Counted from the stretch's first letter, positions 22,919 to 36,183 are shown. The stretch: DNA of 64,000 nucleotides from Methanothrix sp. (GCA_040770465.1 JAXGJB010000006.1:1-64000), one strand, 5' to 3'. Numbers and translations are program-made. The notes: generated from the sequence alone by a model not told the origin.

Positions 22919-23947
22919 TCAGCTCTGATGTCTCAGCCAGTCGTTCCAGGTGTACAGCCTGGCGTCGCGCCCCTGGAGCATCAGGGCGTACCAGACGATG
23001 GAGGCCTGGCCACCGTTCTTGGTGTAGACGGCGACGGGCCGATCCGCCTCCAAGTCGGCGAAGATCCCGGCGAGGGCCGAGTCATCCTTGATCCAGCCGC
23101 CGTCGATCATCCTGTTGAAGTCGATGTTGACGGCTCCATCGATATGACCGGCAGCGAACTGACCCGGTGTCCTTGCATCGACGACCACAAACTCGCCGGC
23201 GGCGACTGAGTCGTAATCTGCGAGAAGCTCGGGGCGGAGGTGTGATGTGTAGGTGGCGGCAGGCCTCGTCGTCGTCGAACCCGCAGTGGGAATCCCGGCC
23301 GCCGCCCAATCTCCCGAAGATCCCCGGAGGATCGTGACGTTCTCGTGGCCCAGGTACTGCATGATCCAGAAGACAAAGGTAGGATCACCACAGGAGAGGC
23401 AGTCGCCGTAAATCACCAGATCGTCATCTTCGGTGACCCCCGCATTCCCGAGAACCCCGGCCATTTCAGATTCGGATTTCAACATGCCTAGCCCGGAATC
23501 GTCGTTCTTGACGAAGCTCTTTGAGGGGAGGTTTATCGATCCCTCGATGTAGGATGAGCTCTGGGGCGCGGTGTTGCTGACGTAGGCGATCAAGGGCTTT
23601 TTGTCACCGTCGAGCCTCAACTTAAGCTCCTGGGCTGAGACGGACCAGGTGCTGGTGTCATAATCGTCATAAAAAGCCGCTTCGGTCCCAGCTTCAGCGC
23701 CCGTCTCAGACTCAGAATTCATACCATCCGATGGGGCCGAATCGTTCGAAGCGGCTGAATTGTTCGAGGTGGCCGAATCGTTCGACGATCCCCCCAGAGC
23801 CGTCTCGATCCACGACTCGCCGTCCCAGATGCCGCCGCTTCCTCCGCCGCACGATGGGCATTCGGCCTCTGCGCCGCCTAAAAGGACGACCAACGTTATC
23901 ATAACAGCCCCATACTTCGCTATGTTGCTTCGCATCTTTTTATTCAC
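22919..23947 (-). CDS. Secreted tandem-domain rhodanese-like protein, copy 1
   Basis: Signal peptide ending AEA then [43 protein letters not shown]; catalytic Cys position reads VYTKNG. Confidence 0.85.
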   Translation of the reverse strand: MNKKMRSNIAKYGAVMITLVVLLGGAEAECPSCGGGSGGIWDGESWIETALGGSSNDSATSNNSAASNDSAPSDGMNSESETGAEAGTEAAFYDDYDTSTWSVSAQELKLRLDGDKKPLIAYVSNTAPQSSSYIEGSINLPSKSFVKNDDSGLGMLKSESEMAGVLGNAGVTEDDDLVIYGDCLSCGDPTFVFWIMQYLGHENVTILRGSSGDWAAAGIPTAGSTTTRPAATYTSHLRPELLADYDSVAAGEFVVVDARTPGQFAAGHIDGAVNIDFNRMIDGGWIKDDSALAGIFADLEADRPVAVYTKNGGQASIVWYALMLQGRDARLYTWNDWLRHQS

Positions 23948-23998
23948 TTCCTGAAAAGAACCCCACTTTTAGGACCCCACTTTTGAGATGGGGCCCGT

Positions 23999-24418
23999 TC
24001 ATACCCTCCCCTCTCCTGTCACCAGCTCTGCCAGTTTCATCATCTCGATGACCGCCCCATCTGAGAGCCGGTAACGGGACCACTTTCCCTCCTTCCTCTC
24101 CTTTACCAGACCCGCCCCCTTCAGGATAGATAGATGATGAGACGTGGACGACTGGGGCCTGTCGAGGGCGGTCATGATCTCGCAGACGCAGAGCTCCCCC
24201 CCCCTGAGGAGCTCGAGGATCGCAAGCCTGCAGGGGTCTGCCATGGCCTTGAAGACCTCGGCCCCGGCAACTAGCCGACCCTCATCCAGATTTTCGGTTA
24301 ATGTTTGAAGCCTCCGGGCTGCATTCTCGGCCTTGCATCGATCTCCCGTCAGCCTTGTAAGCCTCTCAATGCAGGGGTCCGGGGTTTTTATCTCCTTACT
24401 AATGTCGATCAGCCCCAT
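23999..24418 (-). CDS. arsR: ArsR/SmtB family transcriptional regulator
   Basis: FKAMADPCRL, ELCVCEI metalloid box, SHHLSILK. Confidence 0.9.
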   Translation of the reverse strand: MGLIDISKEIKTPDPCIERLTRLTGDRCKAENAARRLQTLTENLDEGRLVAGAEVFKAMADPCRLAILELLRGGELCVCEIMTALDRPQSSTSHHLSILKGAGLVKERKEGKWSRYRLSDGAVIEMMKLAELVTGEGRV

Positions 24419-24428
24419 ATCGATCGGC

Positions 24429-24572
24429 TCAGCAGCAGGAGCACCCAGAAGATGGAAGAAGCATCTCCGCCTCCTGTCTCAAGCATTCCCTGCAGATCCT
24501 CACCCGCCCCCTCTTCCGATGCCTCGCTTTGAAGAGGGGATCCGACTCCTTGCCGCAGATCTCACATATCAT
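24429..24572 (-). CDS. 47-aa Cys-rich microprotein, copy 1 (CxxC...CxxC...CSCC)
   Basis: Manual translation MICEICGKESDPLFKARHRKRGRVRICRECLRQEAEMLLPSSGCSCC*; same-length paralog at 27909-28052. Confidence 0.8.
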   Translation of the reverse strand: MICEICGKESDPLFKARHRKRGRVRICRECLRQEAEMLLPSSGCSCC

Positions 24573-24733
24573 TAAGGACCACATCCCCGTTATGGAGGTC
24601 CGGAGGAAGATCTCTCTGGCCCGGGTTCCGGATTGGGGTGGCAGAAACCGTCAAATCCACCTTCGGACCGCAGTTCAAAGGGATTAAGGATGGAGAGATC
24701 TCCGACCGTCTCCATAGAGCTCGCAATTTTCGT

Positions 24734-24765
24734 ATCAAGTTTATTCGATATATAAGGGTATCGAA
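24734..24765 (-). promoter_or_regulatory. TATA box with overlapping ArsR-type operator
   Basis: ATCAA-N6-TCGAT at 24734-24749 and TTCGATA-N8-TATCGAA at 24744-24765 around CTTATATA (minus strand); conserved at 28283-28314. Confidence 0.7.
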
Positions 24766-24872
24766 ACTCAGGTCACCTTCAGCCCGTCCGAATAAGGCGA
24801 TTTATTCGGATGGTATTTTAAAATAAGAAAAAGCATTATCGTCCCAAAATTGTAGATTAAATGGCTGTTTTC

Positions 24873-24910
24873 TGTGGATTATTGCTCCGCCTATCCAACA
24901 ACTATATATG
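24873..24910 (+). promoter_or_regulatory. Conserved inverted repeat plus TATA upstream of thioredoxin-like gene
   Basis: TGTGGAT-N13-ATCCAACA followed by CTATATAT; same motif at 28423-28460. Confidence 0.55.
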
Positions 24911-34394: not shown

Positions 34395-34436
34395 AGCCTT
34401 TCACATCCTCAAATCAGGTTTTGACTTACGAAATAA

Positions 34437-35513
34437 CTACGTTATCGCCCCGTAGATCATGCCCATCGCCGTCGATAGGAGGACGACGAGGGTGATGTAG
34501 ACGCTCGCCCTCTTCGATCCGATTATCCGCCAGATGACGATCATGTTCGGAAGGCTCATGGAGGGGCCCGCGAGGAGGAGGGCCAGCGCTGGTCCAGAGG
34601 CCATCGCCCCCGACGAGTAGCCGAACAAGGTGCCGACTATCGGAACCTCCAGGAGGGTCGGCATGTACAGGAGGGACCCTATCACCGAGGCGACGAGACA
34701 GGCGACGAAGTCGCTCTCGCCGAAGACCGTCTTGATCAGGTCCACGGGCAGATAGTAGCCTATGATGCCTGTTATGAAGGTCCCCACGAGAAGAAGGGGA
34801 AAGATCCGCTTGGCGAGCCACCAGGTCTCTCCGAAGAAGGATGACCTCTCCGTCTCGGAGAAGTATGCTCCCAGAAGCAAAGCCGATGCCAGGACCAGGA
34901 TCGCGACCAGGGCGGCCTTCGGCACGAGGGCGAGGCCCGAGGTGGCGGCGAGGAGGACGGCGACCAAGACCCCGACGAAGAGGGGCGGGACGTATCCGGG
35001 CCTCTTATCTTCGTCTCCGGCTTTCGAGGGTGGGATCTCGCAGGCAGCCGTCTCATCCGCCTCTTTTGGTCCCCGCTCGAAGATGGCGGCCATGACGAGA
35101 CCGATGATCACCGACATCGAGACGGCTGCGACGACCCGAGCGGCGCCCAGCTCCAACCCCAGAACCCGGGCCGTCAGGACCACGGCCAGGAGGTTTATGG
35201 CGGGACCTGCAAATAAGAACGCAGTGGCGGGACCGATCCCGGCGCCTCGCCGATGAATCCCCGCAAACATCGGGAGGATCGTACAGCTGCAGACGGCAAG
35301 GATGGTGCCAGAGGTGGAGGCGACGCTGTAGCATAACCATTTCGGTGCGTCTTTTCCGAAGTACTTTAAGACCGCCTCCCTCTGGAGAAGGGCGGCTATC
35401 GCCCCTGCTATGAAGAAGGCCGGTATGAGGCAGGTGAGGACGTGGGCCGAGAGGTACTCCATCAGAGCCTCAAAGCCAGCCTCCAACGGTGGCGAGAATA
35501 TTTCCGGATTCAA
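34437..35513 (-). CDS. ArsP/DUF318 family permease
   Basis: HVLTCLIPAFFIAGAI, AVCSCTILP, FLFAGPAIN, YMPTLLEVP, LLAGPSMSLP. Confidence 0.88.
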   Translation of the reverse strand: MNPEIFSPPLEAGFEALMEYLSAHVLTCLIPAFFIAGAIAALLQREAVLKYFGKDAPKWLCYSVASTSGTILAVCSCTILPMFAGIHRRGAGIGPATAFLFAGPAINLLAVVLTARVLGLELGAARVVAAVSMSVIIGLVMAAIFERGPKEADETAACEIPPSKAGDEDKRPGYVPPLFVGVLVAVLLAATSGLALVPKAALVAILVLASALLLGAYFSETERSSFFGETWWLAKRIFPLLLVGTFITGIIGYYLPVDLIKTVFGESDFVACLVASVIGSLLYMPTLLEVPIVGTLFGYSSGAMASGPALALLLAGPSMSLPNMIVIWRIIGSKRASVYITLVVLLSTAMGMIYGAIT

Positions 35514-35585
35514 AGCATCACAACCTGGGACCTTTGGCAGATGTAAACGCCAACGACATCAGACAACTCCTGCAATTCTTCAAAC

Positions 35586-35918
35586 TCATCCGACAGAGCC
35601 CTTCAAGATCTCTTCGGCCTTCTTCAGCTCAGATATCTCCTCCAAAGCGAGAGCGTCCACCTCTCGCAGAAGGTCGAATATCCTTGGGTTCTTCACCTGG
35701 TAGAGGGTCCGCTTGCCGTCTATCCTTCTCTCCAATATCCCCGCCTCGTTGAGGATGGCCAGGTGCTTTGATATGGTGGACTGAGCCCTGCCGAAGGCGG
35801 GAACGATCTCGCAGACGCACCTCTCCTCTCGTCCGAGAAACTCTATTATCTCAAGCCTTGTGGGGTCGGAGAGGGCGCCGAGGATCTTGGCGCGCCAATT
35901 GGTGGCCGATCTTCTCAT
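35586..35918 (-). CDS. arsR: ArsR/SmtB family transcriptional regulator
   Basis: ALSDPTRL, ERCVCEI, QSTISKHL. Confidence 0.9.
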   Translation of the reverse strand: MRRSATNWRAKILGALSDPTRLEIIEFLGREERCVCEIVPAFGRAQSTISKHLAILNEAGILERRIDGKRTLYQVKNPRIFDLLREVDALALEEISELKKAEEILKGSVG

Positions 35919-35945
35919 CGTATCGGAGACTCAAAGCAACTGATT

Positions 35946-35974
35946 CTTATATATACATATCGCCATGAAGCGAT
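35946..35974 (-). promoter_or_regulatory. TATA box and palindromic operator upstream of arsR-arsP operon
   Basis: ATCGC-N6-GCGAT at 35959-35974 next to TATATATAAG (minus strand). Confidence 0.5.
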
Positions 35975-36027
35975 TTAGCCTCAGCCAGGTTTTGAACTTG
36001 CCACAAGTCAACTTCCGCCGGAGCCCT

Positions 36028-36183
36028 TCACCTCACCCTCTTGATATTCCTCGACCGGCAGGATTGGCAGGCGACGACGACTCCTGAGGCCTTGAAATCG
36101 ATCCCGCAGTTGAGGCACTTGAACTGTTTCTCGTAGAGAGACCCCTCGGCGGGGTCTATCGAGCAGCCGCATATGTTGCACAT
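36028..36183 (-). CDS. 51-aa Cys-rich zinc-ribbon microprotein
   Basis: Manual translation MCNICGCSIDPAEGSLYEKQFKCLNCGIDFKASGVVVACQSCRSRNIKRVR*; three CxxC; not in ORF track. Confidence 0.7.
   Translation of the reverse strand: MCNICGCSIDPAEGSLYEKQFKCLNCGIDFKASGVVVACQSCRSRNIKRVR

Follow-up and report, generated by a model that had tools for sequence, protein, structure and literature searches.

Sulfur-carrier and redox genes linked to arsenic-resistance genes in an island of Methanothrix

Gene content and layout of the island

A 64,000-nucleotide (nt) stretch of DNA from Methanothrix sp. (hereafter the window, meaning the whole stretch that was analysed) carries an island in which arsenic-resistance (ars) genes are interleaved with genes for DsrEFH-type sulfur carriers, an Fe-S protein, rhodanese-like proteins and extracytoplasmic redox proteins. 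Open reading frame (ORF) listing, combined with scans against Pfam and NCBIfam, places 19 genes between positions 22919 and 35918 (Table 1). These scans recovered acr3, arsM, the ArsP permease, the thioredoxin, the DGC-domain gene, dsrE/F/H, the ferredoxin and the redoxin-CcdA fusion where a first-pass annotation had put them or close by. Its picture of a closely spaced, co-directional series with dsrEFH and the ferredoxin gene upstream of arsM, and of an overlap between acr3 and a rhodanese gene, is likewise borne out by the ORF coordinates: the genes of 28626-33680 all run in the same direction with successive gaps of 6, 51, 13, -7, 29, 27 and 124 nt, and acr3 and rhd2 share 16 nt. The reading frame that it gave for the DGC gene, 33750-34151, was also correct, being the one that matches PF08859; another ORF overlapping this gene (33730-34116) has no family match and was rejected.

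Table 1. Features of the arsenic island, with their positions in the window, strand and principal evidence
Feature	Position	Strand	Evidence
rhd1, tandem rhodanese-like protein, signal peptide	22919..23947	-	PF00581 65 bits, 2 stretches
arsR1, ArsR/SmtB metalloregulator, ELCVCE motif	23999..24418	-	HTH_5 62.4 bits; NF033788 99.7 bits
IG1, divergent intergenic region	24419..25061		paralogous to IG2
sTrx1, secreted thioredoxin-fold protein, CEGC	25062..25619	+	45% identity to sTrx2; fold modelled for sTrx2
rhd2, tandem rhodanese-like protein, lipobox-like A-G-C-A-C	25824..26798	-	PF00581 71 bits; PDB 3aax alignment
acr3, arsenite efflux permease	26783..27865	-	TIGR00832 445.8 bits (cut-off 282.8)
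IG2, divergent intergenic region	27866..28625		paralogous to IG1
sTrx2, secreted thioredoxin-fold protein, CDYC	28626..29150	+	AlphaFold (AF2) predicted local distance difference test (pLDDT) 79.9; Foldseek thioredoxins E 6e-5
Redoxin domain (CVEC), membrane-anchored, fused to CcdA/DsbD-type transmembrane electron carrier	29157..30560	+	DsbD_TM 52.8 bits; AhpC-TSA 29.7 bits
Three-domain Fe-S protein: ArsR-type winged helix-turn-helix (wHTH), TATA-binding protein (TBP)-like half-domain, corrinoid/Fe-S protein-type [4Fe-4S] domain	30612..31409	+	PF04060 48.8 bits; HTH_5 21.5 bits
DsrE-like subunit	31423..31791	+	PF02635 52 bits
DsrF-like subunit, without conserved active-site Cys	31785..32132	+	PF02635 33.4 bits
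DsrH-like subunit	32162..32452	+	PF04077 30.6 bits; TIGR03011 46.5 bits (cut-off 49.2)
Ferredoxin (fdx), small single-cluster type, six conserved Cys	32480..32725	+	Fer4_15 50.7 bits
arsM, arsenite S-adenosylmethionine methyltransferase	32850..33680	+	NF008823 352 bits (cut-off 263)
DGC-domain Cys-rich protein	33750..34151	-	PF08859 111.9 bits
MTH895/ArsE-family thioredoxin-like protein (Thioredoxin_3)	34158..34394	-	TIGR00412 107 bits (cut-off 62)
ArsP_1-family permease, invariant C-S-C pair (C75, C77)	34437..35513	-	PF03773 239 bits
arsR3, ArsR/SmtB metalloregulator, RCVCE motif	35586..35918	-	HTH_5 58.7 bits

Among the arsenic genes proper, Acr3 and ArsM score above their curated cut-offs, and conserved cysteines are retained in both: C127 of Acr3, which lies in an R-C-I-A-M-V stretch, in 40/40 aligned sequences, and C30, C31, C63, C151 and C201 of ArsM in 34/34. 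A conserved cysteine in this stretch is a mark of ACR3 permeases, and the ArsM cysteines would correspond to Cys44/72/174/224 of CmArsM. The products of arsR1 and arsR3 combine an ArsR-family wHTH with a C-V-C motif, in the form ELCVCE or RCVCE in 32/34 ORFs when their orthologues are included; we take C-V-C in the DNA-binding region of ArsR to be the metalloid site. While three ArsR-type regulators had been counted in the first-pass annotation, these two stand as such and the third is the three-domain Fe-S protein, a member of a wider, ars-tied family (see below). No arsC is found within the window by Pfam or NCBIfam, as had been claimed, but the claim does not extend to the genome, in which two ArsC-like genes of the low-molecular-weight phosphatase type lie on other contigs (C8 and C28; 126 and 70.5 bits against a cut-off of 174.3). 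PF03960 has no match in the genome.

The divergent intergenic regions IG1 and IG2 are paralogous from end to end, with a mean column identity of 76%, and have in common two TATA-like boxes with an inverted repeat at each. Directly upstream of arsR1 and of acr3, a stretch of about 180 nt is shared at ~85% identity. In relatives, an arsR gene lies between acr3 and the IG2-type divergent region, and this copy is absent from the window. The duplicate likeness of IG1 and IG2, taken together with the arsR of the relatives, suggests that an arsR copy once present between acr3 and its promoter was lost by deletion in this genome.

Linkage in related genomes and the TBP-like/[4Fe-4S] family

The linkage of the sulfur and redox genes to ars genes is real and conserved. 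Set beforehand as the point on which the first-pass proposal could fail, it was found in Methanotrichaceae genera, in two gene orders, and in Methanosarcina. By gene coordinates, the rhd gene adjoins acr3 in 16 of the 19 Methanotrichaceae genomes with an acr3 orthologue, the exceptions being genomes G019, G023 and G024, the last with three stops in its acr3; in the window's genus the order is acr3 then rhd, and in other genera arsR-rhd-acr3. Local tblastn on 40 fetched regions shows how the arrangement varies: ten genomes of the window's genus have rhd-acr3-arsR divergent from a series comprising sTrx, redoxin-CcdA, the Fe-S protein gene, dsrE-F-H and fdx, with arsM next in six of them, and four other genera carry arsR-rhd-acr3, the Fe-S protein gene and dsrE-F-H as a single co-directional block. 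Additionally, sTrx and redoxin-CcdA genes occur at the arsR divergent promoter, or beside arsP/Thioredoxin_3, in at least six genera.

A complementary view comes from an alignment scan with the Fe-S protein, in which one genome per species was used and the best 80 of 148 relatives were kept. At the 35 Methanotrichaceae loci of this set, dsrE adjoins the Fe-S protein gene in 34 cases, and the locus holds acr3 in 21 and acr3 or arsM in 24. The corresponding neighbours at the 44 Methanosarcina loci, which usually hold tandem Fe-S protein genes (mean 1.9 copies), are dsrE (40), DGC (22), Thioredoxin_3 (20), acr3 (7) and arsM (3). The complete dsrE-F-H triad is retained at 31-34 of the 35 and 38-40 of the 44 loci, respectively. 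Arithmetic from one to a few ars loci per 1.5-5 Mb, used here in place of a computed control, puts the chance expectation for ars genes in a span of 12-16 kb at the order of 1%, and the recurrence of the arrangement in relatives argues that it is not due to chance.

The Fe-S protein has 265 residues, of which C107, C218, C221, C226 and C243 are conserved in 98-100% of 127 sequences. In its structural model (pLDDT 82), residues 1-89 match ArsR/SmtB repressors, with Z 12.1 to CadC and HlyU; the HTH_5 score of this part is just below the cut-off of 22. Residues 91-190 match one half of the archaeal TBP (Z 11.8 over 94 residues with a root-mean-square deviation (rmsd) of 2.8 in a VIA-align search), in agreement with the Foldseek match 2z8u (80 columns, rmsd 2.3). 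By sequence profile, the C-terminus resembles the corrinoid/Fe-S protein [4Fe-4S] domain (E 5e-7), the pattern C-x2-C-x4-C...C following the TBP-like half-domain. Foldseek with the whole model returned nothing at E <= 0.001.

Among 401 genomes of the phylum, the full-length form with the wHTH is confined to the two Methanosarcinales families apart from a single genome of another one, and homologues of ~178 residues without the wHTH are found in four further families. Cys107 and the cluster cysteines are kept in these short homologues (20 aligned). Genes of ars type lie within 6 kb at 9 of the 20 short-homologue loci, one of which displays the run acr3-arsP-Thioredoxin_3-TBPFeS (the last standing for the short TBP-like/FeS gene), and CcdA-like, DGC, CMD and LMWPc genes are found among the further neighbours. 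Genes for TauE/SafE-family anion exporters adjoin the short gene at 5/20 loci, a pairing which parallels that with acr3 and could reflect a common role involving sulfur oxyanions. At one locus of another archaeal family (G043:C21:6502-9186), with a DGC gene and an ars cluster upstream, the short gene precedes an ORF of 89 residues, a pair of DsrE-family genes and a pair of ArsP_1-type permease genes of half size.

Gene-neighbourhood comparison further extends the ars linkage of this family beyond other archaeal families to metagenome contigs. In a metagenome scan of the best 80 of 597 relatives, 29 of the 46 loci of at least 4 kb hold acr3, arsM, arsP, Thioredoxin_3 or DGC, 20 of them acr3 or arsM. 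A recurring order is arsR-arsP-Thioredoxin_3-CcdA-TBPFeS followed by acr3 or arsM. A same-strand island-type gene lies within 400 bp at 28 of the 73 usable loci. NCBIfam holds no model for the family apart from its FeS domain. As a gene that recurs in ars operons, the TBP-like/[4Fe-4S] family is the most general novelty of the island.

Rhodanese-like, thioredoxin-fold and DsrEFH-type proteins

Both rhd1 and rhd2 display the tandem rhodanese fold of two-domain thiosulfate sulfurtransferases of the mycobacterial CysA type (PDB 3aax, ~200 residues, E 3.8e-11), PF00581 matching each in two stretches. Unlike those enzymes, they are secreted with a lipobox-like motif, and the catalytic Cys column of their C-terminal domain holds Ser, Thr or another residue in 25/25 family members: the catalytic cysteine of the 3aax chain stands opposite a Ser in rhd2, and rhd1 has a Thr at this position, together with CLSC in the N-domain loop and a lipobox-like A-E-C-P-S-C. 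A CxxC in this normally inactive N-terminal-domain loop is a further departure from the two-domain enzymes and occurs in 19 of the 25 members, namely those of the window's genus and some long paralogues; in the same alignment no loop cysteine was found in the acr3-adjacent orthologues of other genera. Across 22 distinct acr3-adjacent orthologues, the only cysteines conserved at >=90% are those of an N-terminal A-G-C-x-C, which immediately succeeds the signal peptide, precedes a Gly-rich stretch, and has the look of a lipobox with one additional free thiol. Since the catalytic cysteine is replaced in all members, rhd1 and rhd2 are best classed from their sequences as pseudo-rhodaneses that cannot use the canonical rhodanese mechanism, and the earlier label of rhodaneses does not hold for them in the sense of canonical sulfurtransferases. 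Many orthologues outside the window's genus end in a short basic tail, R-[FY]-K-x-L-G-x, after a low-complexity linker, which may be a sorting or anchoring signal. The rhd family is represented in all 24 other Methanotrichaceae genomes by 2-10 matches each, and no homologue was found in 16 genomes drawn from two further families in the class, save for one match at 8.5e-4.

The two proteins annotated at first as signal-peptide thioredoxins have no Pfam or NCBIfam match, but the assignment to the thioredoxin fold stands by modelling, and their CxxC is invariant in 28/28 sequences. The AlphaFold model of sTrx2, built from 24 homologues, has only thioredoxins as top Foldseek matches (TM 0.6-0.68, normalised to target), and its N-terminal 40 residues are disordered or helical, as fits a signal peptide or anchor. 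Profile comparison by hhalign of sTrx with Thioredoxin_3, redoxin-CcdA and DsrE gives only a weak match in the CxxC region (probability 15%). On the model, sTrx1 and sTrx2 thus have a thioredoxin fold with the CxxC at the start of helix 1. The redoxin-CcdA fusion retains C74 and C77 of the redoxin CxxC and C231 and C380, one per CcdA half, in 20/20 sequences, and its DsbD_TM score, well above the cut-off of 27.1, identifies it as a CcdA-type carrier. In setting a Thioredoxin_3/ArsE-family protein and a DsbD_TM-type membrane protein in an arsenic context, the island resembles ArsEFG of Shewanella putrefaciens, reportedly described by Chen, Zhang and Rosen in 2019; it differs in that the fusion is not ArsG by the NF040495 equivalog model (53.9 bits against a cut-off of 200), and that no link to aromatic arsenicals is indicated. 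The surface module can also be compared with SoxV(CcdA)/SoxW-SoxS and the SoxYZ carrier, and with CcdA/Etrx/MsrAB2 of Streptococcus pneumoniae: in each a CcdA-type exporter and an extracytoplasmic thioredoxin serve a Cys-bearing client, with the cysteine beside a Gly-rich arm. Unlike in these systems, the client in the island would be a pseudo-rhodanese lipoprotein coupled to Acr3, and neither Sox nor Msr genes are present.

These extracytoplasmic proteins might constitute a general thiol-maintenance system of the Methanotrichaceae cell surface, standing beside ars genes by shared history and not by function. A paralogous rhd/sTrx/redoxin-CcdA module on another contig of the same genome (C9:40438-43889) and a pair of rhd and DsbD_TM genes on contig C3, both devoid of ars genes, agree with this proposal, as do the expansion of the rhd family across Methanotrichaceae and the existence of surface thioredoxin and CcdA systems with other clients, e.g., the S. 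pneumoniae Etrx/CcdA/MsrAB2 system in the available text of its report (PMC3914529). Nonetheless, we regard it as very unlikely in view of the acr3-rhd adjacency in two gene orders, the placement of sTrx and redoxin-CcdA genes at arsR promoters or beside arsP/Thioredoxin_3 in several genera, and the CcdA-like genes within metagenomic ars operons. With respect to their own surroundings, the C9 module adjoins a gene for a response-regulator/PAS/GAF protein and has the gene for OapC (origin-associated protein) nearby, and the C3 rhd gene encodes a 618-residue rhodanese-like protein with FlgD_Ig and adjoins NosD-like beta-helix, CBM96 and DsbD_TM genes.

On the cytoplasmic side, the island triad shares with DsrEFH of Allochromatium vinosum and TusBCD of E. 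coli the E-F-H order, the Pfam domains and the relay cysteines: C75 of DsrE, whose counterpart by alignment in the A. vinosum protein (2hy5_A) is the active Cys78, is invariant along with C78 in 78/78 sequences, and C19 of DsrH is conserved in 99%. It differs from them in its equivalog scores (see below), in the extra DsrE cysteine, which creates a CxxC as in YchN, the best structural relative by sequence, and in having as constant neighbour an Fe-S/wHTH protein in an ars context in place of a dsr or tRNA-thiolation context. Further, PF04358 (DsrC/TusE) has no match in the genome, which is 94.85% complete, so that the usual DsrEFH acceptor is missing; one TusA gene is found elsewhere (contig C50) beside a DsrE2-like gene.

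The cysteines of the triad admit more than one interpretation. One is that DsrEFH and the C-x-C of the lipoprotein serve as arsenic chaperones, which would bind As(III) and deliver it, as ArsD does for ArsA, to Acr3, ArsP or ArsM, with no sulfur transfer involved. The invariant CxxC of DsrE, as against the single cysteine of the A. vinosum protein, would suit such a role, as would the conserved cysteine pair in every membrane and extracytoplasmic partner and the overlap of the acr3 and rhd genes. However, the same CxxC spacing is present in YchN of E. coli, a protein not known to handle arsenic, and Cys19 of DsrH is conserved too, as in sulfur relays; we accordingly deem direct arsenic delivery quite improbable.

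Another interpretation is repair of collateral damage, whereby the Fe-S protein, DsrEFH and ferredoxin would form a sulfur/Fe-S homeostasis unit, either a back-up persulfide relay or a sensor of cluster status, that never touches arsenic, its co-regulation with the ars genes being owed solely to the damage that As(III) does to thiols, persulfide carriers and Fe-S assembly. The retention of true sulfur-relay cysteines in DsrE and DsrH and the neighbouring protein with a [4Fe-4S] domain and wHTH are as expected on this account, and the short homologues are also found beside TauE/SafE, Usp, CMD and LMWPc genes, i.e., in general sulfur or stress contexts. A change under arsenite in how DsrE/F-like genes are expressed, left unexplained but with thiol inactivation considered, is likewise described for Thioalkalivibrio in the available text of one study (PMC6620896), and a good part of the Methanosarcina loci have no ars-type neighbours (16/44). 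Repair of this kind nevertheless appears rather unlikely to us, given the operon-level linkage, in which the Fe-S protein gene and dsrEFH come directly after acr3 in at least four genera, and the recurrence in metagenomes of orders of the type arsP-Trx-CcdA-TBPFeS-acr3 or -arsM, which is closer than general repair would predict.

Candidate roles in arsenic handling

The explanation that we prefer, with about equal chances of its being right or wrong, is that the locus represents a lineage-typical, extended arsenic-detoxification island of Methanotrichaceae (of the Methanothrix harundinacea or 'Methanocrinis' type), with a cysteine/persulfide-based extension on both sides of the membrane. What has been demonstrated is the identity of the genes and the conservation of their linkage and of the cysteines. 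The extra redox and sulfur-carrier genes probably belong to arsenic handling because their linkage recurs in related methanogens, and thioarsenical chemistry, with thiolation or dethiolation of arsenic, is a plausible hypothesis.

On this explanation, the island would be run from ArsR-flanked divergent promoters, with the shared promoter regions freed of the CVC-type ArsR by As(III), and classical Acr3 efflux, an ArsP-type permease and ArsM methylation would be coupled to cysteine-based redox and sulfur-carrier proteins. Acr3 would export As(III), and its translationally coupled partner, the membrane-anchored pseudo-rhodanese lipoprotein with A-G-C-x-C as its only family-wide thiols, could act at the outer face in binding or hand-off, with no classical rhodanese role. 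The redoxin-CcdA fusion and the secreted thioredoxins could move cytoplasmic electrons outward, thereby keeping extracytoplasmic thiols reduced or free of As/S adducts. In the cytoplasm, the DsrEFH-type carrier, with its intact DsrE and DsrH cysteines, the Fe-S protein and the ferredoxin would act on arsenic-connected sulfane sulfur, the most probable reaction being the removal of sulfur from thioarsenicals or the reduction of the resulting persulfide, to yield As(III) for Acr3 and ArsM. The Fe-S protein itself is most likely a redox- or As-sensing regulator of the DsrEFH module, as suggested by the wHTH fusion in Methanosarcinales and by the unfused form beside arsR elsewhere.

RNA-library contigs from four metatranscriptome runs of one anaerobic-digester study are 95-100% identical to many island genes, namely rhd1, arsR1, sTrx1, acr3, sTrx2, redoxin-CcdA, the Fe-S protein gene, dsrE, arsM, DGC and arsR3. 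A contig of 591 nt spans the junction of the Fe-S protein gene and dsrE, and the individual runs cover 21, 21, 17 and 9 of 30 bins of the island. The deepest contigs lie at 25120-25800, over sTrx1 (depth 18-31 in three of the four runs), and at 37087-37594, over thiI (12-15 in two). The former hints that sTrx1 is expressed without added arsenic, contig depth being a poor measure of expression. The genes that flank the island are unrelated to it and comprise thiI, two LPG_synthase_TM genes, methyltransferases, a giant ricin-lectin protein and radical SAM genes. A 1411-residue ORF at 11400-15635 (-) contains four ricin-type beta-trefoil lectin repeats and lies in a stretch of low GC (46% against 55-60% nearby).

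Several observations weigh against an arsenic role of the whole ensemble. First, arsenic induction, arsenic binding and As-S chemistry stand as inferred steps, and the RNA data are assembled contigs from one study, so that strand, transcript continuity, induction, freedom from DNA and expression rank lie beyond their reach. Second, the genomes compared are related, and hence non-independent samples in the linkage counts, within which acr3 or arsM lies within 8 kb at just 9 of the 44 Methanosarcina loci, 16 of the 44 are without any of five ars-type genes, and 11 of the 20 short-homologue loci have other neighbours, such as TauE/SafE, Usp and radical SAM. Third, DsrE, DsrF and DsrH score below the NCBIfam TusD, TusC and TusB equivalog cut-offs (28.3/89.25, 19.8/94.15 and 46.5/49.2, respectively). 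Fourth, the absence of the canonical catalytic cysteine from the rhd proteins deprives extracytoplasmic sulfur transfer of its classical catalyst, and the ars-free modules on contigs C9 and C3, along with the several rhd matches per genome, indicate that the extracytoplasmic module is not arsenic-specific. Finally, with ArsC-like genes present elsewhere in the genome, a substitute for arsenate reduction is not required.

A stronger version of the preferred explanation, which we consider unlikely in its full form, casts DsrEFH, the TBP-like/[4Fe-4S] protein and ferredoxin as a ferredoxin-driven thioarsenical desulfurase. In this scheme, monothioarsenate and methylated thioarsenates, as structural analogues of thiosulfate, would pass their sulfane sulfur to Cys75 of DsrE, As(III) or methyl-As(III) would be released for Acr3, ArsP and ArsM, and the persulfide would be reduced through the Fe-S protein, while the same As-S adducts would be dealt with on the outside by the CcdA/thioredoxin chain and the lipoprotein coupled to Acr3. 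The more specific notion that such an enzyme is a necessary stand-in for a missing ArsC is ruled out by the ArsC-like genes on C8 and C28. If the scheme is true, the desulfurase would be a sulfidic-habitat counterpart of ArsC, and the TBP-like/Fe-S family a widespread, unnamed arsenic-operon gene of anaerobic archaea.

Seen against known arsenic systems, the island is in part familiar. Like canonical ars operons (arsR-acr3/arsB-arsC, arsM, arsP) and the determinants listed by Castillo and Saier 2010 (PMC2963123), among which are CcdA and thioredoxin, together with redox-active disulfide protein 2, it groups CVC ArsR, Acr3, ArsM, an ArsP_1 permease, Thioredoxin_3 and a CcdA-type protein; the words 'Fe-S' and 'rhodanese' are absent from that article. 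It departs from canonical operons in being without arsC, in having a CcdA with a fused extracytoplasmic redoxin and secreted thioredoxin partners, and in adding DsrEFH, ferredoxin, the TBP-like/[4Fe-4S] protein and the Acr3-coupled pseudo-rhodanese lipoprotein. The literature searches returned no account in which DsrEFH, the TBP-like/Fe-S protein or a rhodanese-like lipoprotein coupled to Acr3 figures as an arsenic gene. [quoted passage not shown]

The DsrEFH-type carrier, the TBP-like/[4Fe-4S] family and the Acr3-coupled pseudo-rhodanese lipoprotein are three gene types conserved in or beside methanogen ars operons, and the literature searches gave neither a published function nor an arsenic link for any of them. 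In paddy soils, sediments and digesters, habitats in which arsenic occurs largely together with sulfide, Methanothrix and Methanosarcina are the chief methanogens that use acetate. The three gene types are concrete candidates for the handling of thioarsenicals by anaerobes, and they are genetically tractable, with genetic tools at hand in Methanosarcina. Should their role turn out to lie in stress repair alone, three families would still be added to the arsenic regulon of methanogens.

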